Shown: positions 3,449-45,990, counted from the stretch's first letter. The stretch: 64,000 bases of DNA from a virus (IMGVR_UViG_3300045988_069849:162273-226272), one strand, 5' to 3'. The notes: generated by a model from the sequence alone, not told the origin. Numbers and translations are program-made.

Positions 3449-3461
3449 ATCATTGTATTAT

Positions 3462-5506: not shown

Positions 5507-5507
5507 T

Positions 5508-7234: not shown

Positions 7235-7379
7235 CTTAAGAGCATCCACAACCTATACGTTTATGTCCATGGTGGTGATTATCACAGAATCCTCCACAGG
7301 TACGGAACATCGCTAGTAATCTCTCAGCCTCCATGAATTGTTTAAAGCATATTAAATAATCTATAATGTTAAGAGTCAT
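7235..7379 (-). CDS. small Cys/His-rich protein (MTLNIIDYLICFKQFMEAERLLAMFRTCGGFCDNHHHGHKRIGCGCS)
   Basis: Manual translation of a short ORF. Too short for the ORF track. Confidence 0.3.
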
Positions 7380-7481
7380 CCATATGAAATCTCGAGCAAA
7401 TATATCTGCTTCCTAATCTCTAGTTAGACACTTATTTAGTAAAGCATCAAAGAGTTTCTTACAATAATTAATGTAACACTA

Positions 7482-7967: not shown

Positions 7968-7980
7968 ATTGTAATAATTA

Positions 7981-8709: not shown

Positions 8710-8710
8710 A

Positions 8711-10882
8711 TTAATGTATTTGTCTTATTTTGTCATTATATGGATTTCCATCATGAAGCTAAGCCAACTCTATTTCAGTTCTTTTTTCTTCAATATCCAT
8801 TTGTCTATCTTTATAAGTAGAATCAGACTGAGCTTTAAGCCAGTTAACTTTATATTCTAACTGCATCTTCTACTATTCTAATCCTAGTCTCTATTCATCT
8901 AAGCTTTCAATCTTTTGCTGAGCTTTCTATAATTCTTGCTATAACTACTGAGCCTATTGAGAAGTTTCTTCTAATTTTTCTTGTAGTTGCTGAAGCTGAT
9001 TATTTTCCTCTTTGCGAACTTGAACAGCTTTCTTAACCTTATATTTAAGGTCTGTCAGACTCTTAGATGTAAGAGCCTCAAAAATAATATCTGGGTCCAT
9101 CTGTTGACTTTTTACGAACTCTGGAATGATTGCTTTTATAGTCTATAGATCTTCCATCACTTCTGAACTAGCAGTAATATGAATATCGTAGTCAGTAACA
9201 GTAAAATACTCAGGAAGTGCGGTGAATATCTGTTGATATTTATCCCCAAGTATAATAGTTCCAGTTAATCCTTTCTTATAAGTAACTTTAGCCTAATTAA
9301 GACTATCTAGTAGTATCTCGCAGGTTATTAAATCCATCTGCTAAAAATAGTGCTTAGTTACTATATACGAGTTAGCTACTCCCTACTTAATATTAGTAAC
9401 TGCATCTCTAGTTTCTATACCGTTAAGTCGTTCCCTAAATACTCCAGTTATTGATGATGTAGTTTGTTCTACTGATTGAATAGCTAATTCAATAGCCTAT
9501 ACAGCCTATGCTTTTAAGGTATCATCAAATCCGTTATATATCTAGTTTGGAGCTTGCTGTCCATCATTCCTACCTTCTTGGCTTGAGTCTATCCACATGA
9601 TACCACCTTTTTTATAGGCTAACCATTTTTGTACTCGTTCTGGCCATTTAACTCCTAAGTTGGTAGGCAACAGAGACATATCCATAATAACTCCGGCAGT
9701 ACCACTATTAGCTATTAGATTATCTCTATAATAGTTTAATAAGTCGTATCTATCCTACAGATGTGCACATTTTAATATAAGAGAATAAGGCTACTAAGAG
9801 CGATTTAAGAAATATACTCCATTTACCGATAAAGAACAGAAGTTGGGATTATCTTTAGATCTCATAACAGTCTTGTCTAATCCTCTAAGAATATATATCT
9901 CTTCTCCTATTCTAATAGTATTGTATCTCTACATCACAAAATCATCATCTGTTTCAATCCATTCAACATCATAGACTGGGATTAACTAGAACCTATGAGC
10001 ACTATATTCATTGTCTGGATAGCCGGGAATGGTTTCATGATTCTAATCTTCATTTACTACTGTACAAGTATCTCCATATACTCTTCTATAAACAGCAGCT
10101 GAATCATCAGCTCGCCATTCATCTTTTAGTCTTCTTAAATCTTCTCTAGATATTTCTTTGCCATATTTAGCTAAAATCTAACTCTTACTCATCCACTTTC
10201 TTACTACAACTCTATATGAGTTCCTTACATATGGAGATTCTGGATTTCTATCAACAAATGTATTAAGTGGGTTTAATACCTCTATTTCAATATTAGTTCC
10301 AGAAGCCGATGATTTCACTCTAAAGAATGTATAACCAGTAATTAATAGGTCTGTTAGTAACTAACGTAACTTAGTAATTAAATCGGTTTCTCTGGATTGC
10401 ATAATATAATGTACTATATTCTAAGCTGCAATTTCATATTGAGAAATAAAGGATTGGTCAATATCCTATATAATTTTATCTAACTAAGTCTTTACAGCTT
10501 TATCAGTAATATCCTTGCCATCAATAAACTTAAGAATTGAATTACTTAAATGGTCTTTCAAAAACTTTACTATTCCCTTGGTTATTTCTAGCTATTTTTC
10601 TCTTGTTATATTACTGATAGTATCTGAATCTTTGCAAGAAATTTTCGGAAGTATAGGAGTTCCTAAATATTCTCCAACTAGAGCATCTACGTGTTTCTTT
10701 AATAAAGGCGTAAACTCTACCGAAGTGGGGCTACCTATTCCGAAGTTTTCTTCCAGATAACGGAACTATTCAGGATCTCTTTTACCATTATAATAATTAT
10801 AAGCTTTCTGTAACTCATACTTATCATATACAAGTTCCGCAATAGCCTCGTTTGTCTTGTCTATCAATTCCTTCTCTTTCAT
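8711..10882 (-). CDS. putative portal protein (~724 aa) with a Q-rich C-terminal coiled coil; about 25 in-frame TAG
   Basis: A single frame runs from ATG 10880-10882 (MKEKELIDRTNEAIAELVYDKYELQKAYNYYNGKRDPE...) to TAA 8711-8713 when TAG=Q. It sits immediately downstream of terL and its size is portal-like. No motif-level proof. Confidence 0.45.
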
Positions 10883-11102
10883 AACATAAATTATGTTGTT
10901 CTGGAGGAAGTTTAGTAGCGTTATAATACTTAACTCTTTGTAACTTCCTACTTCTTAATTCTTCCTTAATAAATGGCAGAAATTCTTCGTCTGGTAAATC
11001 TGCTATTATTACTAATGGCATTTCTGACCTATCAAAGTTAAAAGAGACTTTATACCCAACTGGGTCTAAACTCTCAATATCTAGTCCGCCTATATACTCC
11101 AT
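10824..11102 (-). CDS. possible small ORF in an alternative frame, spanning the terL/portal junction
   Basis: ORF-track 10824..11285 is an uninterrupted 153 codons. It overlaps the terL 3' end and the portal 5' end in a third frame. Only the part downstream of the terL stop could be an independent gene. Confidence 0.2.
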   Translation of the reverse strand: MEYIGGLDIESLDPVGYKVSFNFDRSEMPLVIIADLPDEEFLPFIKEELRSRKLQRVKYYNATKLPPEQHNLCYEREGIDRQDKRGYCGTCI

Positions 11103-13437
11103 TTTGTACAAGTCCCTCATATATTCTAGGATCACTTGTTTCAACTCTGTATGGGTCATCATATTCGTTTCTTTGCATATTAAGTTCAGGAGTTTTCTTA
11201 GTTGGAATAACTCCAAATCTTTTAATTCCTCTCTCGTCGTAATAGTAACCAAAATCTTGGAACTATTCAACTTCTTTCTCCACAAGTACGGGCTGTCTTC
11301 CTGATAGCTCTTGGTCTGCCAACTCAGTCATACCTACAGCGGCTACAATATCATACTTACCCTTATTTTCATCATTATATGCAGTAAACTATTCTAGCAT
11401 TTCTTCGAACCATATAGTATGGCAATAGTCTTCTATAAAGGCGGCTGTTAAATCAGTATGCTATTCAATTATAGTTTTTGTAGCAGGAGTTCCATACTAT
11501 TTAGTAGTTCCATTTCTGACATCAGTTAGAGTAGCTCTTGGGCGCTTCATAAAATAGTTAAGGCATCCTTTTTCTCTAGCCCAAGTAACCATACCCATAC
11601 GAGTAGCTTCTATATTTATTTTACAATTATAATAGCGAGCTAAACACATAGCTATTTTATAGGCTTCTCTGATGTCTCCAGGTCTATCCTTGTACATAGC
11701 AACATACTGAGGGTCATTCATACCAAACGCACGTTTCTTAATCGTTATGCAGAAATCAGACGGATCTCTGGTTTCCTTAGAAGTCTAATTCGCTCCAATA
11801 TCAATACCGTCTATACCTGCTACGTATAAGTCTCGCATCTCTTTATAAACTGGAACTTCAAAATCCTAGCCATTATTTTCTGCTTCCTATCTAAGCTTTT
11901 CCATTTGTTCTTTATATAAGTCAGACCATATTGGATGCTCTAGAATTTTTACTTTACCATTGCTATTAGGAATCCATTTAAAGCCATCAATGTTATCCTA
12001 AGTATGTTTATTATTTTTGTAAAAATAATCAATATAACCACATTCGGGTCTTGGACCAATTTGTTTAAGTCTTATATTAGCTATCTATTCGGCAACTAAA
12101 ATTTTATTAAATTTATTAACACCTTCTAGATTAAATGCTTCTTCTGCATTCCAACAACGTTCAGCACATTTCTTTAGGTAGTCTTCTGGTACAGCTAACA
12201 GATTATCTCGCTCCTCCTATAAGAATTTCTTATATTCTACAGTATTACACACTCCTCTGTGGTCCATAAATTCTGGATTCAAAGATTGTATAAAGTATGG
12301 AATAAAGAATCCACTCTCTATAGTAGTCCCATCCTAAGTCCAATTATGTCTAAATGGAAGAATCTTATATGCTCTTGGATTATAGTAAATCTTTTTTAAG
12401 CCCTCTAGAGGAGCACCCATATCACCGCCAGTACCTCCAAACAACATTGTTCCACGAGGCATACCTTGAACTTCACAAAGTTCTTGACCTTGTACCACAG
12501 CGGTATCAAGTCCAGGCCAGGAACCAGCTTCATCATATATTAATAAATCTACACGGTCTCCACGAATGTTAGATGGTTTAGCTCCGTTAATTGCTACAAC
12601 CTCAGATTTAAATCCTACGTCTTCAAACTAACCATTTATTTTGATTTGTTTACCTGATTTCTTTCTCAAATCCTGGTCAATAAGTCGCAATTTAAAAAAT
12701 CCTCCTCCAGTACAGGTATTTAAGAATGTAAGAGCATTGTCAAACTTACTAAAGGTACCCTTAAGGAAGGTATCATTAAAGCAAGTAATCATAACCCTAC
12801 TTCTTCTAATAACAGAGTACATACGAGCAGAAAGAGAGGCGTTTATTTCAGAGAATCCAATAGAACGAGCTTTCATTAAAGCTGCGTGCTTGTGTAGCAC
12901 TCTAGCCATCTATAGATAATGAAAGAACATATAATGTGATGCAAAGAATATTGGGAAGTCATTATCAGTACCCTCACCAGAGGCTTTCTACTAGTCAATA
13001 GTAGGTAACTAATAGAAATTTAAGAAGAAGTAATTATCTCCAGTAATGGTGTATCCATTAACTGTCATTCCATACTTACATCTTCTATATTGCTCTTTCC
13101 AAAATTCGTTGTACCGCTTACTATCTCTAAGGTAGGGACAGTATTGACCAGTTCGTTTATATACTTCCCTAGTCTCGGTAAACCAATCTGGATTAAAGTC
13201 CAATCCATGAGTTTCGTCAATAGGTCTGTATCCAGTTATTTCATAAGATAAGGTAGGGTCAAATACTTCTATTTTATCTCCTATTTTAACATCCCAATAG
13301 TCAGAATTTCTGACCCTTTCCTCTCTTATTTTCTATACTAATTCTCTAGCTTCTTTAGCATCCTCTTTCTATTCTTTTTCTCTTACCTAATCTACAATAT
13401 TCTATATTTCTTCAGGTAATATCTTTTTTCTTGGCAT
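11074..13437 (-). CDS. terL: terminase large subunit (788 codons incl. stop), ~10 in-frame TAG
   Basis: One frame (lower coordinate = 1 mod 3) runs from ATG 13435-13437 to TGA 11074-11076, joining ORF-track fragments 13009..13203, 12628..12909 and 11497..11721. It contains the Walker B-like LLIYDEAG and an FGGTGGDMG motif. TAG codons sit in sensible positions, e.g. EEI[Q]NIVD[Q]VREKE[Q]KEDAKEARELV[Q]KIREE. Confidence 0.8.
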
Positions 13438-13439
13438 AA

Positions 13440-14006
13440 TTAAAAGTCTCCTGGGTCAAAACCATCCACAGCTCCAGCTCTAACAGTAGATTGTTCAGTA
13501 AGTTCTTTCTTAACCTAGTCTTCTAGTGTTATGAGTTCTTCATGAACTTTGTGAAGGGTAGCCATTTCCTTCATTACTTTTTCAGCCTGGAATACTGGTT
13601 TGCCGTTATTATCACGCTCATTTAAATCTACAATAGTTTCGAAATAATCAATAAACTAGTCTGCAGCTCTTTTAGCTGCTTCTAGTAATTTTATTGACTT
13701 GTTTGAATCTTGTAACGCTCTGTATTTCCTACAAGCTTCTCTAAATATAGGGTCATTAAATTCTGACTCTGTCAATCCAGAATCACTAATAGCTTCGTCA
13801 TGTCGTTCATGTTCCGAATACTAACTGTACGGACTTTTCCAGTCTATAGCTAAATAAATGTAAGATAGTTCTCTAGTAGCTCTATCCTTTTCTGCAGATT
13901 TATCCCTCTAGATTAAAGCCTTAAATTCCTTAACTAGCAATATCTCTGGTTCATTTATTTCTAGCTATTTAGTTAAAGTGTTATAGTTAAATACATTCAT
14001 AATCAT
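13440..14006 (-). CDS. putative terminase small subunit (~188 aa), 5 in-frame TAG
   Basis: Lies immediately upstream of terL. Manual translation MIMNVFNYNTLTK[Q]LEINEPEILLVKEFKALI[Q]RDKSAEKD... The assignment is positional only. Confidence 0.4.
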
Positions 14007-14037
14007 TAATCATTATCATACACATTAGATAATCTTA

Positions 14038-14616
14038 TTATTTCTTTTTCATTTTGGAACCGCACTTATTGACTTTCATTTTGGAACCACAAGCGTCTTT
14101 CTTAGCATATTGTTTTCTGTCAGGAACCCATTTTCCTCCCTGGAAATTACCCTTATGTCCCTTATTGGCCATAGTTTCCTAATCATTGTATTTATTGATT
14201 GATATAGAATCTCTTGAGGCTTCGTCTCTAGCAGATTTCATATCTTTCTTATACTAAGCTCTTCCAGCCTTAAATTTATCAACTTCATTAGCTTTCTTAG
14301 TAACTTTAGTTCCTTTTTGTGCTTTCTGGCAAGCTTTACAGATTCTACCGCCTTGCTTAAAATATACAAGCTCTTCTCCTTCTGGACATACTCCTTTTAG
14401 CTTCTTATAATACTCAAGCTTAGCTCCAAGCCTAGCCATTACTCCTCCTTGCATTTTCTGCATAAATTCCTGATACTTAGCTTTAATGCCGTCTTCTCCT
14501 AATTGTTCAGCATAAGCTTGTAAATCCTATTCAGATTGTACTTGTATTCCCTACGCAGCGGCATCTTGTATTAGATATGCCATAAATGCTTTTTGTAATT
14601 CTTCCTAGTTAGCCAT
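14038..14616 (-). CDS. basic Cys-rich protein (~192 aa), 3 in-frame TAG
   Basis: ORF-track 14254..14463 ends on TAG and continues. Start MANWEELQKAF at ~14616. The C-terminus ...CGSKMKKK ends at TAA 14038-14040. Confidence 0.4.
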
Positions 14617-14826
14617 TACTCTTCTACTTTAATTAAATCCTTAGTATTAAACACTGCTTCCTACATAAGTCCGGAATCAGTAAACCATCTACATCTTAAT
14701 CCTCGTAATCCTTGGTTATCTTTAAATAAAGCTGCTTCTCTTCTTAGAACAAGCATAACTGGAGAATGCATTACTTTACACTACCGTAAAGTAACACAAT
14801 CCCCAGGCTTAAAATAAACTTTTTCA

Positions 14827-15429
14827 TCAATTGTTTCCATACTTCAATTCGTTTCTTCTTTCAGTTAGCTTTTCGTTAACTACAGCCATAATTCTGTTCT
14901 CATTAACTACAACAAATCCAAACTTGTAGAACGGAACCATGCACTCGCTAGCTATTGTATAGAATACTATATCTCCAGGTTTTAGGAACTCACACTTGTG
15001 CCCAACCTCAATAACAGTACCCACTTTAATAAATTGTTGTTCTTCTTCTATTTCTCCTGTTTCATTAGATTTATATGTTGGAGCAAACCCACCTAAGTCT
15101 GTAATTAATCCACTCTTAGTAGTTTTAATTTTTTGAAACGGATTTTGTTCGAAAGGTTTAATTAATGCATACCCATACATAGGCATAATTTCTACACCAT
15201 TCATATCCTCAGATAATGATTTGGCGTAAGATTCTAAAGCTGCATTATGTTTAGAGAATTTATCTTCTAATTCATCTACTGCTGTATTGAATCTTTCCTG
15301 TTTTTCTCTTAATAAAGTTTTATCTGCAGCTTCTCCATTTACTATAAGGTGCTGTCCTGTACCTTCCATACCAGTTATAGCTAGTGCTAGTTTCTCATTA
15401 CTGTTCAATTCTGTTCTTAAAGTTTCCAT
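14827..15429 (-). CDS. hypothetical protein (200 aa), standard code
   Basis: Intact ORF in the track with a TGA stop. Confidence 0.6.
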   Translation of the reverse strand: METLRTELNSNEKLALAITGMEGTGQHLIVNGEAADKTLLREKQERFNTAVDELEDKFSKHNAALESYAKSLSEDMNGVEIMPMYGYALIKPFEQNPFQKIKTTKSGLITDLGGFAPTYKSNETGEIEEEQQFIKVGTVIEVGHKCEFLKPGDIVFYTIASECMVPFYKFGFVVVNENRIMAVVNEKLTERRNELKYGNN

Positions 15430-15530
15430 AATTCATTTTACCATTTACATAAATCACAATGTTCATCTTCTATTCTAGTTTTGTTCTCTAGTATACAACC
15501 ACACTCCTCACATACTTCTCCAAATGAAGT

Positions 15531-15776
15531 CTATAATTTATGAGGACAAGTATTACAAATATTTAATCTTGTGGTTGCTAAATCTTGATTAATTCCAAAT
15601 ATATGGAAATATATACTCTTCAATATTACTAAAGGTTTAGTAAATATTGCTTTAATCCATTTCTTTGGCATCTTTTCAGTAGGTTCTTGAGTCATAAGTA
15701 TATAAGCCTTAGTAGGGTTAGCCATTACTGGAGTCCCATATAGTAATAAATTATTTACCATTTCTTCGCAGGACAA
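15531..15776 (-). CDS. small Cys-containing protein
   Basis: ORF track. Confidence 0.35.
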   Translation of the reverse strand: MSCEEMVNNLLLYGTPVMANPTKAYILMTQEPTEKMPKKWIKAIFTKPLVILKSIYFHIFGINQDLATTRLNICNTCPHKL

Positions 15777-15970
15777 TGCTTCTTCTCATTAGGTATCTTT
15801 AATTCCAGTAGACATCCGCATCCTTTTATATACCCTTCTTTTGGACCAATACTTATGTCATTGTTTTCTGGATTTAAATACAACTGTCCATTACATATTG
15901 CATCTTCTTGATTACATATTGGACAGCGTCTACATATTTTCCATCTTTCTTCTATTTCCTCTAGTGTCAT
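15755..15970 (-). CDS. small Cys-rich protein (CxxC pairs)
   Basis: ORF track; RCPICNQEDAICNG...GCGCLLEL. Confidence 0.4.
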   Translation of the reverse strand: MTLEEIEERWKICRRCPICNQEDAICNGQLYLNPENNDISIGPKEGYIKGCGCLLELKIPNEKKHCPAKKW

Positions 15971-15972
15971 AA

Positions 15973-16887
15973 TTAATATTCAATACGTTGACGTTTCTTT
16001 TTATTTTCTGCCAATATAGATTCTTTCTTGTAAAAAGAAAGCATTCTTATTACTTCATCTTTTAAATATGGTAAGTGATATACTGTCATGTTATCACTGT
16101 GGTCGAAGTGTACTAAAACTAAGTCTTCAATTTCAAATTCTGGGTTTTTCTTCTGAATCATCCAGGCGTAAGTACTTAGCTGAAGGGCATAATGCCAATA
16201 ATTAACATCATCTAAATTATTTAGAGGATACTTCATCTTAACTGATGTCTTAGTTTTAGAATTAAAGAAGCTCTTTGTTTCTATTTTTTTATTAGTCTTC
16301 CAGTCACCAATAATTATCTTATTACCTCTTTTAACTAATAAGTCAATTTGTCCAGCTATTCTTAGTTTTCCGTCCTCAGATACTCTAGAGATTAGATACT
16401 CAGGATATACCCCATTCTCCAAATCTAGATTGTTATAGTCTTTTATACACTCAAACTTGCCACCTATTTGATATTTACTTAGGTCTATATCCTTCTTCTT
16501 TTTGTAAAAAGAGTTTTCCAAATCTGCATGGATTCTAGTTCCTCTCTCGCAAGAGTTTCTGTTCTCCATATCCCATGCATCTAAGATAGCTTGTTGTTCT
16601 TTATTAAACTCGTCTTCTGTAATGTTATGAAGTTCAAGTAGAACTTTGTCAAATTTCTTAGTATTCAGCAGAGATTTTTTCTCGATAGCCCAATCTTCTT
16701 TAGGTAGAAGTTTCTCTAGTGCTTTATAAGCTGACCAGAACTCTTTATCAAAGGGTTGGGTGAAAGAATGAATTAAAGTCGTTACAGATATAAATTTCTG
16801 TTCTGGCTTTGTAACATCATAATAAATATGAGCTTCCTCTTCGAAAGCTATGTTCCCATTTTGTTTTGTAATTTTACTTTTGTCCAT
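15973..16887 (-). CDS. PD-(D/E)XK-family nuclease (RecB/Cas4-like exonuclease)
   Basis: GQIDLLVKRGNKIIIGDWKTNKK matches the D...(D/E)xK core. 304 aa. Confidence 0.55.
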   Translation of the reverse strand: MDKSKITKQNGNIAFEEEAHIYYDVTKPEQKFISVTTLIHSFTQPFDKEFWSAYKALEKLLPKEDWAIEKKSLLNTKKFDKVLLELHNITEDEFNKEQQAILDAWDMENRNSCERGTRIHADLENSFYKKKKDIDLSKYQIGGKFECIKDYNNLDLENGVYPEYLISRVSEDGKLRIAGQIDLLVKRGNKIIIGDWKTNKKIETKSFFNSKTKTSVKMKYPLNNLDDVNYWHYALQLSTYAWMIQKKNPEFEIEDLVLVHFDHSDNMTVYHLPYLKDEVIRMLSFYKKESILAENKKKRQRIEY

Positions 16888-17001
16888 TAGTCATAATTCA
16901 TTTAATCATTTATCACATTTATCTATATTTATTTGATACTTTTCAAGTATATTAATATTCTTTGTAAGATACAAATCAATAAATAATACATTATATTAAA
17001 A

Positions 17002-17345
17002 ATGTCTAATATGACAAAAATGGTAACATTTGGATGTCCAATTTTTAAAAACGGGTCAGGCATTCATATTAAAGAGAAAAACAAAGGTAAATTTACTGCC
17101 TCTGCTAAGGCTGCAGGATAGTCTGTACAGGAACATGCTAAATCTGTACTAAACAATCCTAATGCTACTCCTCTTCAGAAGAAGCGTGCTAACTTTGCTA
17201 GAAACGCGGCTAAATGGAAACACGAAGATGGAGCTAAGATACATAAACCAAGTGGACATAGATCTATTCTAGATAATGGATGGATTCCTACTACTAGATT
17301 AAAGAAAGGAAATTATGGATTAATTAAAACAAGAAAGCAATGAAC
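17002..17345 (+). CDS. small basic protein with one in-frame TAG (plus strand)
   Basis: Manual translation MSNMTKMVTFGCPIFKNGSGIHIKEKNKGKFTASAKAAG[Q]SVQEHAKS...KTRKQ. Confidence 0.4.
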
Positions 17346-17418
17346 GCTGTAGTTAAATTAATTAAAGAATTTATACTTAAGATATATCTTTATTTACTAT
17401 TTATATTTAATAAGTAAT

Positions 17419-17610
17419 ATGGACTATAATAGAGCAACTCTTTATGCGGCTACTGGTCGTACTTTATTACTCCCTGGCTGGAAAGGGTATTTTTATTGGG
17501 ACTATACTAAGAATGAATTAAATTTTAGAAATGGAGACTATCATTTAGATAACAAATAGCTCAAGGAGAAAGGAGTTATGGAACGTAATGATTGGTATTA
17601 TATAATATGA
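17419..17610 (+). CDS. small protein with one in-frame TAG
   Basis: Manual translation MDYNRATLYAATGRTLLLPGWKGYFYWDYTKNELNFRNGDYHLDNK[Q]LKEKGVMERNDWYYII. Confidence 0.3.
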
Positions 17611-18043
17611 TAATTAAAAATAATATTATACCGTTTGGAGGTTATAAAGTAATTAATCTGTTTGGATTAATATTTACTAAGTCGGATTTGACTGATGAGG
17701 ATAAGAATCACGAGAATATCCATTCAGTATAGATTTTAGAATGTGCAATAGCGTTTGCAATACTTATATCTATATTATTTGGATTAGAATGGGTATGGTT
17801 AGCTATTCCATCTTTCTATATCTGGTATGGATTAGAGTATTTAATTATACGACTATTAAGACTTAAAGATTCTCAAAATGATTGCTACAGAGATGTAAGC
17901 TTTGAAGAAGAAGCTTATATGAATGAAGACAATTTACAGTATCTAGAAGGATAGAGAAAGATGTTTTCATGGATAAAATATCTAAAAGTTAATGCATAAC
18001 AAAATAGGCGAACTTAGACAATTAAGTCTAGGCTCGCCTATTT

Positions 18044-18601
18044 TTATTTACTATTATACGTACAAGTGATTCTGTTTGGCTCTTCCCACCAAGGTTTATC
18101 TGAAAGTGGAGTTCTGATGCTATTGGGCCAATTTATAATTGGAGTAGTTTCCTCTACTATAGCCTCCATTATTTTAAATAATGTATCCAAGTCTAGCTCT
18201 GGAAGCAGCTCATGAATATTAGTTATTGTTTTCTTATAATTTATCATACCTTCAAAAGTGTCGTTAATAATTGCTTTCTCTATTGTAGTATCTTTATATA
18301 AACCATGTTGTAGTATATTTCTTACTTGATGGTCTATTTGATTCCATATATCTAATAATATAGAAGAATCATCTGAAAGACTATATTGTGGATAGCTAGC
18401 CCTTAAACTGCTAAGTACTTTGCCATTAATGTAAATGTCAAATACGAAATTTTTTATATCATCTGTAGTTTCTCCAGAAATTCCTGCAGCTCTTTGTAAA
18501 AGTTTAAGAGCCTTTTCATATACTTCTCTTTCTTCACGTTCTCTTCTTGAAGAATTAAACATCATCATATTTGCGGCTACTGACATATTAGTACGATACA
18601 C
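18044..18601 (-). CDS. hypothetical protein (185 aa)
   Basis: ORF track. Confidence 0.5.
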   Translation of the reverse strand: MYRTNMSVAANMMMFNSSRREREEREVYEKALKLLQRAAGISGETTDDIKNFVFDIYINGKVLSSLRASYPQYSLSDDSSILLDIWNQIDHQVRNILQHGLYKDTTIEKAIINDTFEGMINYKKTITNIHELLPELDLDTLFKIMEAIVEETTPIINWPNSIRTPLSDKPWWEEPNRITCTYNSK

Positions 18602-18750
18602 TTAGCTTATTTAAGTTGTCTAGATAATCTAAGAACCATTGTTCGTTTTGTTTTCCTTCTTCTACAATAGTATTAATTAAAGATTCTGTAGCTAATAGTG
18701 TTATTTCTGCTAGTTCCTCTAATTCCGATTTAGTAAGTTCGTTATATTTT

Positions 18751-19065
18751 TCAATCAAGTTTAACATAATCCATCCAGTCTTTTATATATGATTTACATT
18801 CTTCCAAATCTGGATAGATACTTGTTATAGAGCATCCAGTTTTCGGATTTTTAAAGTGGTGCATCTTAGCCTCTTCTTTTTTCTCCTCTTCTGTATTTCT
18901 ATTTAATGTTCTATTCCAATAGTTGTACTTTTCATCTAACATTTCCATATCACATTCCTCTAATATTTTCATATTAGGGTTATTCATTATCTTGTCGTAC
19001 TTTCTCTTTAAATTAGAGACTTTGACAACATCATTTCCATTTAATACAACTGCACACTGTTTCAT
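18751..19065 (-). CDS. hypothetical protein (104 aa)
   Basis: ORF track. Confidence 0.5.
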   Translation of the reverse strand: MKQCAVVLNGNDVVKVSNLKRKYDKIMNNPNMKILEECDMEMLDEKYNYWNRTLNRNTEEEKKEEAKMHHFKNPKTGCSITSIYPDLEECKSYIKDWMDYVKLD

Positions 19066-19292
19066 TTCAATACCTTATAAGTACATATCTTGCCTATCTG
19101 TTTTCCTTGAATTGTTATTTGCGGAAGAAAATAGCAGGCTTGATTCTCAAATTCTTGAGGTACAAAGATATAATCAAACTTACTTCCAACTACCTTCTCA
19201 CAAACTTTATTCCAATCGTCTCCCTCTTCTATAATAAGAGTTTTAGCTCCTGTTGGAGTTACTACATAATTCTCATTTAATTTTATCATAAC
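19062..19292 (-). CDS. hypothetical protein (trimmed; the track ORF N-terminus is the tRNA)
   Basis: ORF track 19062..19364. The first ~24 residues overlap the suppressor tRNA. The likely real start is MIKLNENYVV. Confidence 0.35.
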   Translation of the reverse strand, partial: VMIKLNENYVVTPTGAKTLIIEEGDDWNKVCEKVVGSKFDYIFVPQEFENQACYFLPQITIQGKQIGKICTYKVLK

Positions 19293-19306
19293 TATTAATT
19301 TTGGCG

Positions 19307-19378
19307 TTGCCCTACTAGGATTCGAACCCAGACTAAATGATTTAGAGTCATCTGTGCTGACCATTACACCATAGGGCA
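19307..19378 (-). tRNA. amber suppressor tRNA, anticodon CUA (reads UAG), tRNA-Gln-derived
   Basis: Cloverleaf: acceptor tgcccta/tagggca, D-arm gtgt-aatggtca-gcac, anticodon stem gatga/tcatt with loop CUCUAAA (positions 34-36 = CUA), variable tagt, T-arm ctggg-ttcgaat-cctag, discriminator A. D-arm and T-arm are nearly identical to tRNA-Gln(UUG) at 34205-34276. Confidence 0.8.
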
Positions 19379-19383
19379 GTAAC

Positions 19384-19918
19384 TTATTTCTCTTTTAGAG
19401 ATTTATTTTCTGCTGCCAATTTCTCTAGTTCTTTTCTTAATTGTTCATTTTCGTGAAATAAAGCCTGCATAGTAGCGTTGATACTAGCTAATAGTATTCT
19501 CATTTGAGCAACCTATTCATACATAAGCTTTCAGTTGTTCAATTCTCTTTTTAGCTATATCTGACAATGCCATTTTGAATTTAGCAATACCAGCTCTTAC
19601 TGTTTCTAACTTGCCGCTTTCTAAGCATTCTTGTATTTTATGAACTTCAAGCTCTCCTAGATATTCGCATACATCTATAAATAAATCATCATCTAGAGAT
19701 TCTAAATATTTCTGGAATTGGTCTACCTCTTCATTAGCTAGACAGCTTTCTTCCTTCTATCTTTCATAAGATATTAATAAGAACAAAGAATCGTCGGTAG
19801 ATTCGGACTTAATAGTTAGCCCATTACCAGACATATAATATTCTTGATTCGTATTAATTGCCTCAACTAGCTATTTAAACTAGTCCTAATTTAACAATGT
19901 TTCTAAGTCTGTAATCAT
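19384..19918 (-). CDS. TAG-containing gene upstream of the suppressor tRNA (possible regulator; ~177 aa)
   Basis: Manual translation MITDLETLLN[Q]D[Q]FK[Q]LVEAINTNQEYYMSGNGLTIKSES...; at least 8 in-frame TAG. The frame was not verified end to end. Confidence 0.35.
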
Positions 19919-20683: not shown

Positions 20684-21666
20684 AAGATTGGGGAGAAATC
20701 CCCTTTCTTTTACATACAAATAATCTTTGTAGAAATGGACATAAGAAAAAAGTTTAAGACTATAAAGTGTTTGTATAATTGGGGCATAATCTATGACCCA
20801 AAGACTAATGAAAAGTTAAATTTCAAATCCAAACGTGTTTATTGCGTAACTTCTTGGGCTTGGATTATGACCTATCAAAAGTCAGAAGAAGATATTCCTG
20901 AGATAATTAGGATACTCTTTGTAGATTAACTCTAAGGTACTATGAGTTTTAAATAAAGTGCCCACATGAACCCCATCATCGGAACGTTGGTTAACGGGGA
21001 AAACAACATCACAACAAATCAAATCAAAGTTTTTGTTTAGTTTTAGGATTGTATCTGGCAGCTTGGAAAGACAAGCAAAATCTTTATACCTATCTGCTAA
21101 TAGGTTTAGTGTTCAACGCGAAAATTCGGTAAAGGAAGGAGAGAAATTGTCCACTAAAAAGACCCTCAATTTCCGGACTTTTTCCGATTTTCAAAAAATC
21201 CGCCAGAGTAGGAGTTATATAGCTCACACTCTCTATAGACATTATTTAGTATTTAGCCTATAAAAAGGCAACAAAAAGCGAGGCTACGCAGAAGAGCCTA
21301 ACACCAAAAATAACTGCTACAAATTCTATGTGCATATTCGCAAACTTGAGCACTATAGGATTTAGGTTGAGCTGTAAGGATTGGTCACTTATAGCAATAT
21401 TATGAGTACTGCTGATATGTCAGTGACCGTACATATCACATATAAAATATGTTATACAATTATGTTAGAAGTTGCCAGGTCTAAGAAGCCTGATTAAAAT
21501 CTCTAGATAGTAAGAGAGAACCTCATAAGGGTTCATTTTCCATCTCGAATCTATTCGCAAGTTTTGAGATTAGCTACCTCAGAATTTAGTGAACGTTGAT
21601 AACGTTGTATGTCTGGAAAACATACTAAATAATCTCCTATCTTATACTAGTTGTCAAGATAGGATT

Positions 21667-21737
21667 TCCCCATTAGTATAATGCTATTGCGCCTTCCTCT
21701 AAAGAAGGAGATTCTGGTTCGAGTCCAGAATGGGGAA
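21667..21737 (+). tRNA. tRNA-like with anticodon CUA (second candidate amber suppressor), non-canonical D-arm
   Basis: Acceptor tccccat/atgggga (U1-A72), anticodon stem ccttc/gaagg with loop CUCUAAA, variable agat, T-arm tctgg-ttcgagt-ccaga, discriminator A. The D-arm lacks G18G19 and pairs weakly. Confidence 0.4.
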
Positions 21738-22097
21738 CTTGGTATTTGAGGACTACAACTACTTGTAGACTCTGTTGCAGTTAAAGATTATAATGGGTAC
21801 GCCCTGAGACTAATGCAGAGCATCTCTTATGAATAGAGGTGTCTTATCGTGAGATAAGGCAAAGTATTGTGAGATTGAGAGAATTACTAGCTAAAATGTT
21901 AGAAGAAGACCCAGATTCAAGTAGCAATATCTACAAAGAAATATGGGGAGCTTATACTGCTGGGATGAACTCCTTGCTCGAGTAGCAACAATTCCAAGCT
22001 TGGTGAATTAAAACTAGCTAACCTAATTACTCTTTATAAGGTTGAGAATGTAAAAAGAGAATTGGAATGGTAAGCCCATCTCCCTTCGTCCTTTGCT

Positions 22098-41364: not shown

Positions 41365-41437
41365 GGGCCGTTAGCTCAAATGGCTAGAGCGCTGGTTTTG
41401 CACACCGGAAGATAGGGTTCGAGTCCCTGCGTGTCCA
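41365..41437 (+). tRNA. tRNA-Ala-like (TGC) with G3-U70 but an imperfect acceptor stem (possible pseudo-tRNA)
   Basis: D-arm gctc-aaatggcta-gagc; anticodon arm ctggt-ttTGCac-accgg; T-arm taggg-ttcgagt-ccctg. Acceptor gggccgt vs cgtgtcc pairs only at positions 1-4. Confidence 0.45.
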
Positions 41438-41455
41438 CAACAAAATTAAATAATT

Positions 41456-42469: not shown

Positions 42470-43050
42470 TGTTATCAGTATTATATAGCGAATATGAGCT
42501 GTGGGGTTGTCCTAATTGTGGGTGCGATTCTGTTATAAGTAGTGGAGTTTCTGGAGGAGGTCTAACATCTGGAACTTGTAGACATTGCAAGTTAAAATTT
42601 GAAGTTAGAAGCGAAAATCCAATGGGAATAGTCAAATATGGCTGCCATCCAGAAAATCCCTCAGACCCGAAATCTAAATGGGTTATGGAAAGCGCAATCA
42701 GAATTGAACATCCTAGAAAAGGTATTCCTGCATGGAATTGGGAACCAGTTGACGAACGTCCAGAAGAAGGAGAATATTGGAACTCTCGTGGTCCTGGCTA
42801 TCCAGATGTTTCTGGCTTTGTAAAGACCAAAGCTGCTGGTGAGCGTATTCTAGCTATGGTGCATGAAGTGTTAGGAACTGACAAGTGTAAGACTTATCTA
42901 GATTTCAGACCAAGTGAACCAACGTGGATTCAATTCAAATTTCATAAAGACGAGTTTGATATAGAGAAACTAGATTCTCTTACTCGTGATAGTGGAATAA
43001 TTACTAAAGACATAATCAAACAATGTATTTATGGCAAAAGTAGTAAATAG
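42469..43050 (+). CDS. zinc-ribbon-containing protein (193 aa)
   Basis: ORF track; CPNCGC...CRHCKLKF. Confidence 0.55.
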   Translation: MLSVLYSEYELWGCPNCGCDSVISSGVSGGGLTSGTCRHCKLKFEVRSENPMGIVKYGCHPENPSDPKSKWVMESAIRIEHPRKGIPAWNWEPVDERPEEGEYWNSRGPGYPDVSGFVKTKAAGERILAMVHEVLGTDKCKTYLDFRPSEPTWIQFKFHKDEFDIEKLDSLTRDSGIITKDIIKQCIYGKSSK

Positions 43051-43282
43051 GGCCTCTGATATAATCCAACTTAAAGACCTAAAGGATGGGGAATTTGCAG
43101 AAGTAATAGAATGGTTTGAGGATGGAACAGTATCTAACGGAGATATAATTCAAAGATGTGGACTTGCACTATTTATATTAGGAAGTTGTTCTTACTATCC
43201 TGAGATATTTAGTAAGGGTGCTAGAGACTATACTAATACTAAGTTACGAACACTACCTGAGGGTACAACTATAATGTTATAA
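43031..43282 (+). CDS. hypothetical protein (83 aa)
   Basis: ORF track. Confidence 0.45.
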   Translation: MAKVVNRASDIIQLKDLKDGEFAEVIEWFEDGTVSNGDIIQRCGLALFILGSCSYYPEIFSKGARDYTNTKLRTLPEGTTIML

Positions 43283-43322
43283 TTTCTTTTTCCAGTTTTC
43301 TAATTAAAGATAAACTGGGTAT

Positions 43323-43884
43323 GGGCCTACTTGGATTTGACAGGCGATTACAAATTATAAGGACGTGTAGAGCGCAATCTCTTTAAACGAAGAAAAAACA
43401 ATAAATGCTACTTATAGCGAAGTAAGAATGGCAGCCTAAGCTGCTGGCTTGTTGGTAGACACTATTAACTAAGTCGGGTTACGGGAGAGACCTAGAAACA
43501 GAAGAGGTTGAGTATATTGATATAATGGAGAGCTAGGCTCTAATCCTAGTAATATACTCTTAATCAGAACACTCTAAGAGTTAGTAAGACTGAATCTCCT
43601 ACGTCATAAAACAGATGGAAGATGTGTTCCATGAGATGTGACGAATCTCTAAAGTATCATCCCGTTCTCCAACGTAAATGGAGTGGTGGAACGTTGACTT
43701 CGGTCAGCCCTATAGTTTGGTAGCTTGTAGATAAGCATCTAGAGAAATACTTAGTATGGACTCTTGTAAGACTTATAAAACTACCTAAATGCTAGAACTC
43801 CCTAGCTGATGTAATAAAAATGAGACGCACGTTATCCTTGTAACGAGGGTTGTTTGGACACGGGTTCGACTCCCGTTAGGTCCA
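43323..43884 (+). ncRNA. ssrA: candidate phage-encoded tmRNA (ssrA-like), ~560 nt
   Basis: 5' end gggccta ttggatttgacaggcg resembles the tmRNA 5' consensus (acceptor + GGAUUCGACGGG). 3' end ggac-acggg-ttcgact-cccgt-taggtcc-A forms a T-arm plus acceptor 3' strand. The 7-bp acceptor gggccta/taggtcc has G3-U70, the tRNA-Ala identity element. An internal tag-like ORF starts at GCA: AISLNEEKTINATYSEVRMAA followed by TAA. There is no protein-coding ORF across ~560 nt. Confidence 0.5.
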
Positions 43885-43887
43885 CAT

Positions 43888-43932
43888 AATAGGGCTATAG
43901 CTCAACTGGTTAGAGCACCACATCAATAATAT
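43888..43932 (+). pseudogene. truncated tRNA 5' fragment (acceptor + D-arm only) fused upstream of tRNA-Ile
   Basis: gggctat-a-gctc-aactggtta-gagc-a then a degenerate anticodon arm and no T-arm. Confidence 0.35.
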
Positions 43933-44004
43933 TGGGATGTAGTTTAACGGTTAGAACAAGAAACTGATAATTTCTAGACGGCAGTTCAACTCTGTCCTTC
44001 CCAA
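43933..44004 (+). tRNA. tRNA-Ile (GAT)
   Basis: Acceptor tgggatg/cttccca (one mismatch); D-arm gttt..gaac; anticodon arm agaaa-ctGATaa-tttct; T-arm ggcag-ttcaact-ctgtc. Confidence 0.65.
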
Positions 44005-44021
44005 CTAATACTGTAAATAAT

Positions 44022-44570
44022 ATGTAGAAAATTTCTGAACAAATCAAACAACAAGTAAAAGTTCTTAGAGAAAATGGATATTCTTATGATAAAATATCTG
44101 AAGAATTGTCTATTGGAAAAGGTTCTGTTTCTAATATCTGTAAAGAATTTGGATTATGCCAAAAGATAGTTGAGCTAACTCCAGAGAAAATTATAGAAGT
44201 TTAGAAAATGTATGACGAAATAGGTAACATAAAAGAGGTTGCGAGACTCTCTGGAATATCCTATAATAGACTTCGAAACGTTATAGTAAGCAAAAAGATA
44301 ACTCCTAAAACTGGCTACGACAACGTTAAAGAATATAGAAAGCGTACAAAATAGGAACTAGTCGAGTATAAAGGTGGAAAGTGTTAGATATGCGGCTATA
44401 ATAGATGTAATGAAGCATTAGACTTTCATCACCTCGACCCAAGCGAGAAAGATTTCTCATTATCTGGGTAGCACAAACCTATAGAACTTTTAAAGAAAGA
44501 GGTAGATAAATGTATACTTCTCTGTTGTAGGTGTCACAGAGAAATTCACGCAGGAGTAATTGCGCTATGA
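44022..44570 (+). CDS. HNH homing endonuclease with 6 in-frame TAG codons, embedded in the tRNA array
   Basis: Manual translation with TAG=Q: M[Q]KISEQIKQQVKVLRENGYSYDKISEELSIGKGSVSNICKEFGLCQKIVELTPEKIIEV[Q]KMYDEIGNIKEVARLSGISYNRLRNVIVSKKITPKTGYDNVKEYRKRTK[Q]ELVEYKGGKC[Q]ICGYNRCNEALDFHHLDPSEKDFSLSG[Q]HKPIELLKKEVDKCILLCCRCHREIHAGVIAL, stop TGA. CxxC...HH...CxxCH is an HNH/zinc-finger motif. Confidence 0.65.
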
Positions 44571-44682
44571 TGTGGAGGTTATCAGTTCAAGTCTGATTAG
44601 CCCTACAAAACCGCCAGCTCACGCGGTATATAAGAAAGGATTGCCGGACTCGCAGGTGTAACGAGATAAATACCTGCATTTT

Positions 44683-44755
44683 CGAGGCTGTGGTGTAATG
44701 GCTTGCATATCACACTGTCACTGTGAAGGTTGGGGTTCGAATCCCCCAGTCTCGG
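44683..44755 (+). tRNA. tRNA-Asp (GTC)
   Basis: Acceptor cgaggct/agtctcg; anticodon arm tcaca-ctGTCac-tgtga; T-arm tgggg-ttcgaat-ccccc. Confidence 0.6.
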
Positions 44756-44762
44756 CATTTAT

Positions 44763-44835
44763 TCCCCTGTAGTTTAGTTGGTTAGAACACGTGATTTGTA
44801 ATCTCGAGACCTCGGTTCGAATCCGAGTGGGGGAT
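44763..44835 (+). tRNA. tRNA-Thr (TGT)
   Basis: Acceptor tcccctg/tggggga (two wobble pairs); D-arm gttt..gaac; anticodon loop ttTGTaa; T-arm ctcgg-ttcgaat-ccgag. Confidence 0.65.
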
Positions 44836-44862
44836 CTTAACCATTAAATCAGATTAATTTTT

Positions 44863-45537
44863 ATGACTAGATTAGAAAAGTATTTAGTAGCAACTGCTAC
44901 TGAGATTATCGAAGCGGAAACAACTGTTTCTCGCTACTTTGTCATTGGAAACGTCAAAGTTAGAGTATCAGACCATTTAAGTAAAATGAGTGATGCAGAC
45001 TTACAAGTAATTATCCCATTGAACGGAGGGACTAAGTATATAGTTACTGTTAAGGATAGTCCTGGAAAATTTCTTGTATGGAATGCAACTCAAATAAAAG
45101 ACTTTATTCCTTCATTGCAGATTATTAAGGGCTTGAAGGAAGGAGTGCAACTTAAGCCAAAACCTAAAGACTCTGCAGTTCAGAAGATTCAGCTAGCATT
45201 AAATAATAGTAATACCGATGGAGGTTCGTTAACGTTTGATGGTACTATTATTGAGTCTAGATTGAAAGAAAAGCAACTTACTTCCAAACAGCGGGAAGTT
45301 TTCAGGAGAACTAAATCTACTTGGGATATTTCTCAGATTGGAACATTACCCAGTATGATTAAAGTAGATTTGGGATTGTCAAATGGTTCTGTAAACGAAG
45401 ATGTGCAGATATTTCTAACTTGTACATCTTTAACCTACAAAGAAATTCTGAACATTTATAAAATAATAGTTGTTGATAACCGTATGGTTCCAACTATTAA
45501 ACTGTTGCAAGAAGCTTATAGCTTGATTGTGCAGTAG
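44863..45537 (+). CDS. hypothetical protein (224 aa)
   Basis: ORF track. Confidence 0.6.
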   Translation: MTRLEKYLVATATEIIEAETTVSRYFVIGNVKVRVSDHLSKMSDADLQVIIPLNGGTKYIVTVKDSPGKFLVWNATQIKDFIPSLQIIKGLKEGVQLKPKPKDSAVQKIQLALNNSNTDGGSLTFDGTIIESRLKEKQLTSKQREVFRRTKSTWDISQIGTLPSMIKVDLGLSNGSVNEDVQIFLTCTSLTYKEILNIYKIIVVDNRMVPTIKLLQEAYSLIVQ

Positions 45538-45540
45538 GAT

Positions 45541-45612
45541 AGCGCCATCATCTAATGGTTAGGATTTAGGCTTTTCACGCCTGCCATACGGGTTCGAATC
45601 CCGTTGGCGTTA
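45541..45612 (+). tRNA. tRNA-Glu (TTC)
   Basis: Acceptor agcgcca/tggcgtt; D-arm atct-aatggtta-ggat; anticodon arm taggc-ttTTCac-gcctg; T-arm acggg-ttcgaat-cccgt. Confidence 0.7.
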
Positions 45613-45669
45613 CTATGTACCCCAGCAGCGAAAGTTGTTGGGGTATTTTTTGTTTAATATAATTAATAA

Positions 45670-45990
45670 TTGATGAGAAAAACATTTGAGTTTGTAAAGG
45701 TTGGAGGAGTCTGGTTCTATTGGTGGCCAGATTATGACGGAACACCAGAGGAACTAGCAATGGTTGGTGGTGCAGATGAACTTCTTGATTCTCTAGATAA
45801 TAAGTTTGTTAGATTGCAGATGGTTGACCCAGCTGCAGCTAAGATAACGTTGTCTAAAATTGAGGAGGATGAATGTGGAGCAACTTACTTATGCAAAAGT
45901 AAGAATTACAATGACAGGGTATGGATTTGTGCTGTAACTCTATCAGTATTCGGGGAATATCCTCAAAATATTTACCTAAAAGATATGTAA
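45670..45990 (+). CDS. hypothetical protein (106 aa)
   Basis: ORF track. Confidence 0.5.
   Translation: MMRKTFEFVKVGGVWFYWWPDYDGTPEELAMVGGADELLDSLDNKFVRLQMVDPAAAKITLSKIEEDECGATYLCKSKNYNDRVWICAVTLSVFGEYPQNIYLKDM

Follow-up and report, generated by a model that had tools for sequence, protein, structure and literature searches.

An HNH-family ORF and a complete tRNA-Ile gene nested in the anticodon loop of a phage tRNA-Ile gene: a likely homing cassette that uses recoded TAG

A 64,000-nucleotide stretch of phage DNA (IMGVR_UViG_3300045988_069849:162273-226272; hereafter the window) carries a tRNA-Ile(GAT) gene whose anticodon loop is replaced by 648 bp, within which lie a second, complete tRNA-Ile(GAT) gene and an ORF for a predicted HNH-family nuclease that is open when TAG is read as sense. 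We consider it likely that this insert, 43923-44570, is a homing cassette, which destroys the resident tRNA-Ile target, supplies a replacement for it, and depends on a suppressor tRNA for translation of its ORF. The evidence comes from the anatomy of the insert, from empty, occupied and decayed alleles in related phages, from nested relatives in other lineages, and from the way in which the ORF is written.

Results

Anatomy of the insert

The insert and the tRNA genes around it are composed as follows.

43891-43922, plus strand: 5′ half of the outer (resident) tRNA-Ile(GAT), with the acceptor 5′ strand, D arm and anticodon-stem 5′ strand, AGGGCTATAGCTCAACTGGTTAGAGCACCACA
43923-43932, plus strand: left junction of the insert, TCAATAATAT, opening with a loop-like 7-mer, TCAATAA, in place of the CTGATAA of the intact gene
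43933-44005, plus strand: inner (cassette-borne) tRNA-Ile(GAT), called by ARAGORN and scoring 64.2 bits with the Rfam tRNA model
44006-44021, plus strand: spacer of 16 nt from the inner tRNA to the ORF start
44022-44570, plus strand: putative HNH homing-endonuclease ORF, 182 codons and then a TGA stop, with TAG read as sense
44571-44605, plus strand: 3′ half of the outer tRNA-Ile(GAT), with the anticodon-stem 3′ strand, variable loop, T arm, acceptor 3′ strand and discriminator
44683-44756: tRNA-Asp, an empty allele of a second cassette described below (the Asp cassette)

Over its 32 nt, the 5′ half of the outer gene is 100% identical to the start of an intact tRNA-Ile(GAT) found in 13 related contigs, and the 3′ half, which appears as an orphan T arm in a scan of the window, is 100% identical to the intact gene of these relatives. 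Between the stem strands CCACA and TGTGG, in place of the 7-nt loop CTGATAA, stand the 648 bp of the insert, with the stop codon of the ORF directly abutting the outer anticodon-stem 3′ strand. Because relatives carry the gene uninterrupted, and because the same 648 bp replaces the loop in the window and in two further contigs (L007 and L014), the inner tRNA and the ORF are read from this comparison as one insert in the anticodon loop of the resident tRNA-Ile(GAT). Apart from the tRNA and the ORF, the insert has 26 nt (43923-43932 and 44006-44021).

The original prediction located the ORF in a tRNA array, between tRNA-Ile and tRNA-Asp, and took this for a typical niche of mobile HNH elements. 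The array is as described, with 29 tRNA genes in the window and a span of 25.8-51 kb, and the placement holds for the tRNAs that ARAGORN calls. Anatomically, however, the ORF lies inside a second, split tRNA-Ile gene. The neighbouring tRNA-Ile is cargo of the same 648-bp insert, and a free-standing gene in an intergenic niche is not supported: unlike the SegB and F-Tfl types, which have intact genes on either side, the ORF is flanked by the two halves of a tRNA-Ile gene that has been disrupted. The split gene goes uncalled in the intron mode of ARAGORN (introns up to 1200 nt) because its loop is not preserved, whereas the joined halves (43891-43922 + 44571-44605) are called as tRNA-Ile at every junction tried. 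Split tRNAs were found by manual joining and with a custom half-tRNA detector; its matches in L059 and L088, and a second one in L017, were disregarded as false or doubtful.

The inner tRNA is the sole intact tRNA-Ile called in the window and is presumed to be a functional replacement for the outer gene. The two are 67% identical, and their anticodon stems differ (AGAAA/TTTCT in the inner versus CCACA/TGTGG in the outer). Insertion at this point disrupts the presumed recognition site, which is the self-immunity expected of homing endonuclease genes. Upstream of the outer gene, a tmRNA ends at 43887, and the outer tRNA starts 4 nt later.

Empty, occupied and decayed alleles in related phages

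The original prediction proposed comparing arrays with and without the insertion. The 27 related phage contigs comprise 13 with an empty site, 3 with an occupied one and 11 with a decayed form, and the junctions are identical. A search of IMG/VR with the outer 5′ half returned 14 contigs, 12 of which have the intact gene and two of which (L007 and L014) share the 648-bp insert of the window. The gene is also intact in the 95%-identical relative MT836666 (L001), in which the loop CTGATAA is uninterrupted. A search with the inner tRNA yielded 11 further related contigs, all of the decayed form. For this uncultured phage, the related contigs measure 96-192 kb, and one record is from human faeces.

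The decayed alleles (L103-L113, n=11) retain a complete inner tRNA. Their outer 3′ half has been deleted, some 19 nt remain of the outer 5′ half, and of the HNH gene the first ~20 codons are left, still with the ATG TAG start. Every one of the 27 genomes keeps exactly one intact tRNA-Ile(GAT) at the locus. Since the decayed alleles keep the inner tRNA and lose the outer 3′ half, a genome that has the inner gene can do without the outer one.

The alleles are also shuffled against their surroundings. Two upstream haplotypes, with a 6-nt or an 88-nt spacer after the tmRNA, are each found with both occupied and empty alleles, and all four combinations of the Ile cassette and the neighbouring tRNA-Asp cassette occur. 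A four-gamete pattern thus holds for the Ile site paired with an indel under 100 bp upstream, and equally for its pairing with the tRNA-Asp cassette ~80 bp downstream, although recurrent indels could mimic it. As far as sequence comparison goes, this haplotype pattern suggests lateral spread by local gene conversion, which would be expected to produce it, rather than simple descent. The three occupied alleles are identical and document one insertion event plus spread, not repeated insertion. In this population sense, presence/absence polymorphism at one exact site bears out the claim of a mobile HNH element. Exact-match searches of IMG/VR for empty alleles of the outer tRNAs of two nested loci from other lineages (L017 and L021, below) found none, so population-level mobility is documented for the window-type Ile cassette and the Asp cassette only. 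An odd tRNA at 39354-39436 was considered as a third polymorphic site and rejected, being identical in the three relatives that cover it.

Nested relatives in other lineages

Among the 80 top-ranking IMG/VR loci that encode a relative of the HNH protein, a tRNA is found no further than 400 nt away in 77, the commonest neighbours being tRNA-Asn(GTT) and tRNA-Ile(GAT), in some cases with a copy on either side. Nesting, in places partly decayed, is seen in L017, L021, L036 and L141 to L144; in the lines below, half denotes a half of the outer tRNA.

L017/L018: HNH identity 68%; order half, HNH, tRNA-Ile, half
L021: HNH identity 53%; order half, tRNA-Ile, HNH, half
L036/L037: inner tRNA-like Ile(TAT) and a shortened HNH
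L144: HNH identity 60%; outer acceptor stem 7/7
L141, L142, L143: HNH identity 85%, 65% and 61%; outer halves partly eroded
L022: HNH identity 49%; free-standing

A homologous HNH is nested with its own tRNA-Ile in at least five other lineages, with differing outer tRNAs. Most of the distant HNH relatives are free-standing, with intact tRNA genes on either side. Between the window and L017, the inner tRNAs are 84% identical, with compensatory change at 18/20 stem pairs, and the outer tRNAs 65% identical, and the L017-type inner tRNA is also present beside the 85%-identical HNH of L141. On the strength of these two observations, we conclude from the alignments that the tRNA travels together with the nuclease. 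The tRNA precedes the HNH gene in the window, L021, L036 and L141 and follows it in L017, and a simple cut-and-copy model leaves this difference in order without explanation.

A second HNH gene, unrelated to that of the Ile cassette (BLASTP E=0.08) and free of TAGs, is found in the same arrangement. In most sister genomes it sits with its own tRNA-Asp(GTC) at loop position 37/38 of the tRNA-Asp that is empty in the window. One relative of this protein (72% identical, L139) is nested at the same position of another tRNA-Asp gene, and a second (71% identical, L140) stands free next to a tRNA-Asp; decayed alleles with the inner tRNA alone are present in L121, L135 and L137.

These loci bear directly on whether the ORF is an ordinary free-standing, SegB-like endonuclease gene, with the adjacent tRNA-Ile a co-converted flank and the nesting a functionless, one-off product of illegitimate repair. 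We consider this unlikely. Same-identity nesting recurs in at least five other lineages of the HNH family with different outer tRNAs, and the unrelated HNH is likewise paired with tRNA-Asp in two different outer tRNA-Asp genes. The cargo tRNA has in each case the identity of the destroyed gene, and the inner tRNA is selectively retained while the rest decays. A free-standing origin would accommodate the intact tRNA genes that flank most of the distant HNH relatives and the tracing of the three occupied alleles to one event. There is also the precedent of SegB, which cleaves within tRNA genes and carries adjacent tRNA genes with it (PMC2330249).

Ends of the insert

The first 3 nt of the insert in the window (TCA) pair with its last 3 nt (TGA). 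Complementary insert ends, which lengthen the outer anticodon stem, are found in all four complete tRNA-Ile cases (3, 6, 4+5 and 7 bp), and the ends of the L021 tRNA-Pro insert are complementary too; the chance of end complementarity of at least 3 bp is ~0.018 per case. Mutated, loop-like 7-mers remain at one junction (TCAATAA, TTAATAA, CTAGTAA and ATTATAC), and the TTAATAA at the 3′ junction of L017 would form a well-shaped loop. The homing-cassette model leaves the terminal complementarity unaccounted for, which hints at an RNA-level or integration-level feature. Together with the residual 7-mers and the variable gene order, it may leave room for an RNA-level split-tRNA role or for a particular palindromic stem-loop integration chemistry.

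One such role could be added to the cassette model. The outer halves might fold in tRNA-like fashion through the extended stem and serve as an RNA scaffold, either directing RNase P/Z processing by the tmRNA 3′ end or stabilising a looped-out HNH mRNA. Such a scaffold would fit the complementary ends of the four complete tRNA-Ile cassettes and of the L021 tRNA-Pro insert (against the chance per case given above), the undamaged outer halves of the occupied alleles, and the start of the outer tRNA 4 nt past the tmRNA 3′ end (43887). Yet the halves are identical to the empty allele, their integrity may reflect recent insertion alone, and they erode in decayed alleles, L141 and L143; moreover, processing of the inner tRNA would cut the scaffold. 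We regard this addition as quite unlikely.

The same features could be read as those of an intron, in which case a ribozyme or proteins would splice the 648 bp from a precursor RNA, the outer tRNA-Ile would be restored, and the HNH protein would be intron-encoded. The anticodon loop is the classic site of bacterial tRNA group I introns, and the paired insert ends extend the anticodon stem, by 3 bp in the window and by 4-7 bp in other lineages. The tRNA-Asp cassette lies cleanly at 37/38, the canonical position of protein-spliced introns, and the TTAATAA of L017 would give a well-formed loop. However, the insert has just 26 nt of free sequence, and Rfam searches returned no intron family, whether at E<=1 across 43000-45700, at E<=0.1 in five other nested loci or, with gathering scores, over the window as a whole. 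The 7-nt loops that can be composed from the insert ends (8 ways) all have C33 and the anticodon TAT or AAT, other than GAT, and never read CTGATAA. A group I or II intron was accordingly rejected, with no ribozyme core found and no functional anticodon loop restorable. In addition, every nested case has a second tRNA of the same identity, which would be superfluous for an intron, 11 relatives without the outer 3′ half have retained the inner tRNA, and we know of no tRNA splicing endonuclease in bacteria. Given the scant free sequence, the lack of Rfam intron matches, the lack of a correct loop and the dispensability of the outer gene, we conclude that the insert is not an intron, and regard the intron reading as highly improbable.

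Reading frame, recoding and predicted protein

With TAG as sense, the frame is open from ATG 44022 to TGA 44568-44570, and translation with TAG as Gln gives the 182-aa product that the original prediction described. In-frame TAGs are indeed present, although there are five of them rather than six.

44025-27, 44202-04, 44352-54, 44385-87 and 44469-71, plus strand: in-frame TAG codons 2, 61, 111, 122 and 150

The original prediction named two findings that would speak against the frame, a better code-11 gene at the same place and a lack of conservation in relatives. Standard-code ORFs there reach at most 48 aa on both strands, and the code-15 translation has ~2,000 database homologs, of which the best is 95% identical over all 182 residues (E=2e-110). 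On these sequence grounds the reading frame is real and conserved, not a product of chance. The ORF was also rightly singled out as the only TAG-containing gene outside the late block, within this window: no other plus-strand ORF has scattered TAGs. TAG is a stop in plus-strand genes, for example those ending at 43050 and 45537, and the minus-strand ORFs from 39 to 19918 are TAG-rich, with up to 28 in-frame TAGs per ORF. Two tRNA genes with a matching anticodon are present.

19306-19378, minus strand: suppressor tRNA(CUA), Gln-like, which would act in trans; ARAGORN anticodon CTA
21667-21738, plus strand: second tRNA with anticodon CUA, called by ARAGORN; 56.5 bits with the Rfam tRNA model

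The first of these is identical to the phage tRNA-Gln(TTG) (34205-34277) at 55 of 73 positions. In homologs read from DNA, the TAG positions are mostly CAA/CAG. Codon 2 is CAA in two homologs, codon 61 is CAA/CAG in four and TAG in one (with Q61 invariant in 35 sequences), codon 111 is TAG or CAG in two, and codon 122 is CAA in two; codon 150 is a variable position among homologs. This alignment of TAGs with Gln codons, along with the Gln-like suppressor tRNA in the window, substantiates the claim that the ORF is written with TAG as Gln. TAG-using homologs place their TAGs at partly different Gln positions, which argues that the TAGs arose in place in recoded genomes.

TAG 122 falls between the two Cys residues of the first zinc knuckle, and a product with the HNH domain requires readthrough of TAGs 111, 122 and 150; from the frame, a standard-code product with a working HNH domain is predicted to be impossible. 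We reasonably infer that suppressor tRNA gates expression of the ORF. By analogy with the published model for recoded phages, the nuclease would then be confined to the late phase.

Three domains are predicted in the code-15 translation.

About 44031-44144, plus strand: HTH-1, residues 4-41, matching HTH_23 (E=2.6e-6)
About 44184-44285, plus strand: HTH-2, residues ~55-88, a weak second HTH
About 44313-44558, plus strand: HNH domain, matching PHROG profiles, a C-terminal zinc-finger HNH nuclease

Membership of the HNH family, for which a profile search had been suggested, is supported by a match of phrog_2255 ('HNH endonuclease') to aa 98-179 with E=5.3e-25, and six more HNH PHROGs match too. 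The Pfam HNH model scores E=0.009 on the query alone, under its gathering threshold, and PF01844 matches 19 of 23 aligned family members (best E=7e-5). All of the motifs originally quoted are present (C121xxC124, H136H137 and C168C-R-C171-H172-REIH176), and C121, C124, H136, H137, C168, C171, H172 and H176 are invariant in alignments of 23 and of 35 sequences. An AF2 model built on the 95%-identical homolog P0001 as target, with aligned homologs, has a pLDDT of 90.9 and ends in strands 133-137 and 164-168 followed by helix 169-177, compatible with a C-terminal beta-beta-alpha-metal unit. In a Foldseek search against the PDB, this model matched the bipartite (paired-type) HTH of Tc3 and the HNH of Cap5 with probability 0.98-0.99 and weak E values (>=0.014), and HNH-domain matches to Cap5, Gme and Cas9 reached a probability of up to 0.99, with E>=0.045 for the two-domain model. 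The ORF product is therefore predicted, from profiles and the model, to be an HNH-family nuclease with two N-terminal HTH modules, and would be expected to cleave DNA.

That the ORF is instead a decaying pseudogene, whose TAGs are nonsense mutations and not recoded Gln, is hardly credible: it does have five standard-code stops, one of them at codon 2, next to plus-strand genes in which TAG is a stop, but its 182 codons hold no TAA, TGA or frameshift, its TAGs align with CAA/CAG of homologs, the same protein with the same five TAGs is present in three occupied alleles (tblastn 97.25% = 177/182), its catalytic and zinc ligands are all preserved, the same phage encodes two tRNA(CUA) genes as well as a late block rich in TAG, and the genuinely decayed copies look different, being truncated to ~20 codons.

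Discussion

Our analysis favours a homing cassette in which destruction of a tRNA gene and its replacement are coupled. We propose that the HNH protein recognises and breaks resident-type tRNA-Ile DNA near the anticodon stem-loop in co-infecting relatives that are free of the cassette, and that repair then copies the donor cassette, with the tRNA halves and flanks as homology arms, as the population data suggest. Judging from the junctions, insertion destroys the target site and the resident tRNA together. The inner tRNA-Ile(GAT), whose retention is seen in the relatives, would take over decoding and would escape cutting thanks to its different anticodon stem. Because the cassette's own tRNA takes over, invasion would cost the phage little, and no self-splicing intron would be required. 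Once the cassette has spread, as the decayed alleles indicate, the inner tRNA persists while the nuclease gene and the outer halves degenerate. Transcription of the ORF together with the tRNA array is probable, and its translation would wait for the amber-suppressor tRNA(CUA) that reads the five TAGs as Gln, so that the nuclease would be produced only while the TAG-rich late genes are expressed. Delayed translation is known for the T4 intron endonucleases and offers a parallel to this proposed wait for the suppressor.

To our knowledge, homing endonuclease genes are thought to survive within genes only by means of self-splicing introns or inteins, and otherwise to lie between genes. We are evenly divided as to whether HNH-plus-tRNA cassettes constitute a general, unrecognised homing class that invades the anticodon loop, kills the tRNA and substitutes its own isoacceptor. 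If they do, they would be a third answer to the cost of homing into an essential gene, beside introns and inteins and beside intergenic free-standing genes, and they would be a leading cause of turnover and mosaicism among the tRNA genes of phage arrays. The empty site, the fresh invasion, and the decay after which the imported tRNA has become the resident one represent the whole cycle in one phage group, and the replacement of tRNA genes by such elements offers a concrete mechanism for the patchwork evolution of these arrays. Standard annotation would miss the cassettes systematically, with the inner tRNA alone being called, as tRNA finders are blind to orphan halves and the standard code hides the ORF. 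In recoded phages, writing in the late code would hold the nuclease back until late infection. The cassette would then offer a testable case in which a selfish gene has taken on the late code of its recoded phage, which bears on the purpose of stop-codon recoding.

In searches of a full-text literature that takes in few subscription journals, we found no description of a homing nuclease that brings a replacement tRNA into the tRNA gene that it disrupts. Among the closest systems is SegB of T4, a GIY-YIG homing endonuclease that is free-standing in a tRNA cluster, cuts tRNA genes and spreads neighbouring tRNAs (PMC2330249; PMC13096335). In both cases a phage homing endonuclease is encoded in a tRNA array, has its target (presumed here) within a tRNA gene of relatives that do not carry it, and takes neighbouring tRNA genes along as it spreads. 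SegB differs in belonging to the GIY-YIG rather than the HNH family, in recognising the T-psi-C region and not the anticodon region, and in lying between intact tRNA genes, whereas the ORF described here is inside a disrupted one. Furthermore, the tRNAs carried with SegB are not dedicated replacements for the destroyed gene, unlike the cassette tRNA.

The HNH enzymes of the T5 tRNA region are also comparable, being HNH-family, site-specific and encoded in a phage tRNA cluster, and over a 70-nt stretch the DNA of the HNH motif region described here is about an 80% match to HNH genes from T5-like phages. The T5 enzymes are reportedly site-specific endonucleases described as free-standing ORFs within the cluster, and we know of no report of a nested split tRNA or a paired replacement tRNA for them.

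Group I introns provide a further precedent, and I-Ssp6803I in tRNA-fMet is an example of a homing endonuclease encoded by one. Such intron-encoded enzymes occur in bacterial tRNA anticodon loops (reviewed in PMC3984707 and PMC13011429). These introns resemble the cassette in that a nuclease gene lies in the anticodon loop, is polymorphic between relatives and disrupts its target. In the intron, RNA self-splicing offsets the cost; in the cassette, where no ribozyme was found and the outer halves cannot rebuild the loop, a complete second tRNA gene within the insert would do so. Polymorphic homing endonuclease ORFs in zeta crAss-like phages have likewise been ascribed to introns or inteins (PMC12386605).

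Replacement of what is disrupted has counterparts in two other systems, from which the cassette differs in what it carries. In fungal mitochondria, mobile endonuclease ORFs, such as those of Allomyces atp6 and Ophiostoma rps3, insert at a protein gene's 3′ end together with a new coding segment for its C-terminus. As in the cassette, the element brings a substitute for the disrupted part, and the displaced native part stays as a pseudogene; the fungal substitute is part of a protein gene, joined by in-frame fusion, whereas the phage substitute is a whole RNA gene and a separate unit. Temperate phages and ICEs that use tRNA genes as integration sites rebuild the 3′ end with attP sequence, so that a tRNA gene is targeted and the carried sequence preserves tRNA function. 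These elements rely on an integrase and duplicate an overlapping 3′ segment, whereas the cassette, which has no integrase, occupies the anticodon loop and carries an entire, divergent tRNA. Set beside these systems, the nesting of a nuclease and a spare tRNA without a self-splicing intron is apparently a so far undescribed route into an RNA gene.

Further insertions in tRNA genes

A second, independent cassette targets tRNA-Asp (GTC anticodon), and the window holds the empty form of that gene (44683-44756). Most sister genomes carry the cassette as an insert of 659 bp between loop nucleotides 37 and 38 of this tRNA (L001, the relative MT836666, 341-1072); it contains an HNH ORF followed by its own tRNA-Asp. 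This ORF has zero TAG codons and is unrelated to the TAG-recoded HNH ORF of the split tRNA-Ile (44022-44570; hereafter the first HNH).

Among the best 80 IMG/VR loci of relatives of the first HNH, the commonest upstream neighbour is tRNA-Asn(GTT), and in seven the HNH gene is flanked on both sides by tRNAs of the same identity (six tRNA-Asn and one tRNA-Met; examples are L069, L081 and L083). These tRNA-Asn(GTT) genes measure 85-96 nt and have a long variable arm, as does the one at window 40056-40142. Downstream of the latter, at 40143-40299, is a non-coding stretch that is conserved and looks structured (…GTAGTACGCAATGGTGGAATAGAAACGGCT…CATCCAC); it reappears upstream of the split tRNA-Asp in locus L139 (~1370-1470) and matches no Rfam family.

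An insertion that codes for a PD-(D/E)XK_5 (PF11645) protein was found in another phage lineage, where a tRNA-Pro(TGG) is interrupted by 810 nt 3′ of its intact loop, TTTGGGA (L021, 2864-3738). The insert has neither an inner tRNA nor an Rfam intron match, and its ends pair in a 12-bp helix (GGAACTAA/TTAGTTCC and neighbouring bases).

Other RNA genes and elements of the window

RNA features in the window

21467-21638, + strand: RAGATH-14 RNA (Rfam RF03145, 184.6 bits)
41365-41440: tRNA-like gene with an Ala(TGC) loop (Rfam tRNA, 39.5 bits)
43323-43887, + strand: phage-encoded tmRNA gene (Rfam RF00023, 62 bits, E=3e-23)

The split tRNA-Ile starts 4 nt past the end of the tmRNA gene (43887), which carries a ~273-nt expansion in one hairpin relative to the Rfam model. 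On the other side, a 74-nt spacer (44609-44682) separates the 3′ half of the outer tRNA-Ile from tRNA-Asp; its sequence matches an unannotated segment of crAss-like phage cr115_1 (NC_055898, 39049-39122) at 97% identity, and among relatives the spacer varies by indels (56, 78 or 109 nt).

The Ala(TGC)-loop gene received no call from ARAGORN and pairs at only ~4/7 acceptor positions; 20 related contigs carry it with 100% conservation. In the gene that ARAGORN calls tRNA-Tyr(ata) (39354-39436), the acceptor, D and T arms are normal but the anticodon loop is ~15 nt long (ACCAATAAAGCATTA), which could be a mini-insert or footprint. The gene is invariant across the three relatives covering the locus (L004, L010 and L011). 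The second tRNA(CUA) gene (21667-21738) follows the RAGATH-14 RNA at a distance of 29 nt.

Elements and similarities in other phage lineages

A recurrent non-canonical tRNA-like element adjoins HNH homologs in four loci:

L019, 2325-2401
L036, 157-234
L142, ~1413-1485
L144, ~1320-1400

The element has an acceptor stem, an Ile anticodon arm and a T arm, lacks a normal D arm, and holds a D-arm-like hairpin in its variable region (GTAAnTGGTTAC); it scores just 29-32 bits as an Rfam tRNA.

At the DNA level, the HNH motif region of the first HNH (44334-44566) shares 70-80% identity, over 70-185 nt, with HNH genes from very distant phages: Bacillus BCU4, Vibrio VH1_2019, Listeria LPML1, Cronobacter CR3, Yersinia fHe-Yen9-04 and the T5-like Salmonella S124.
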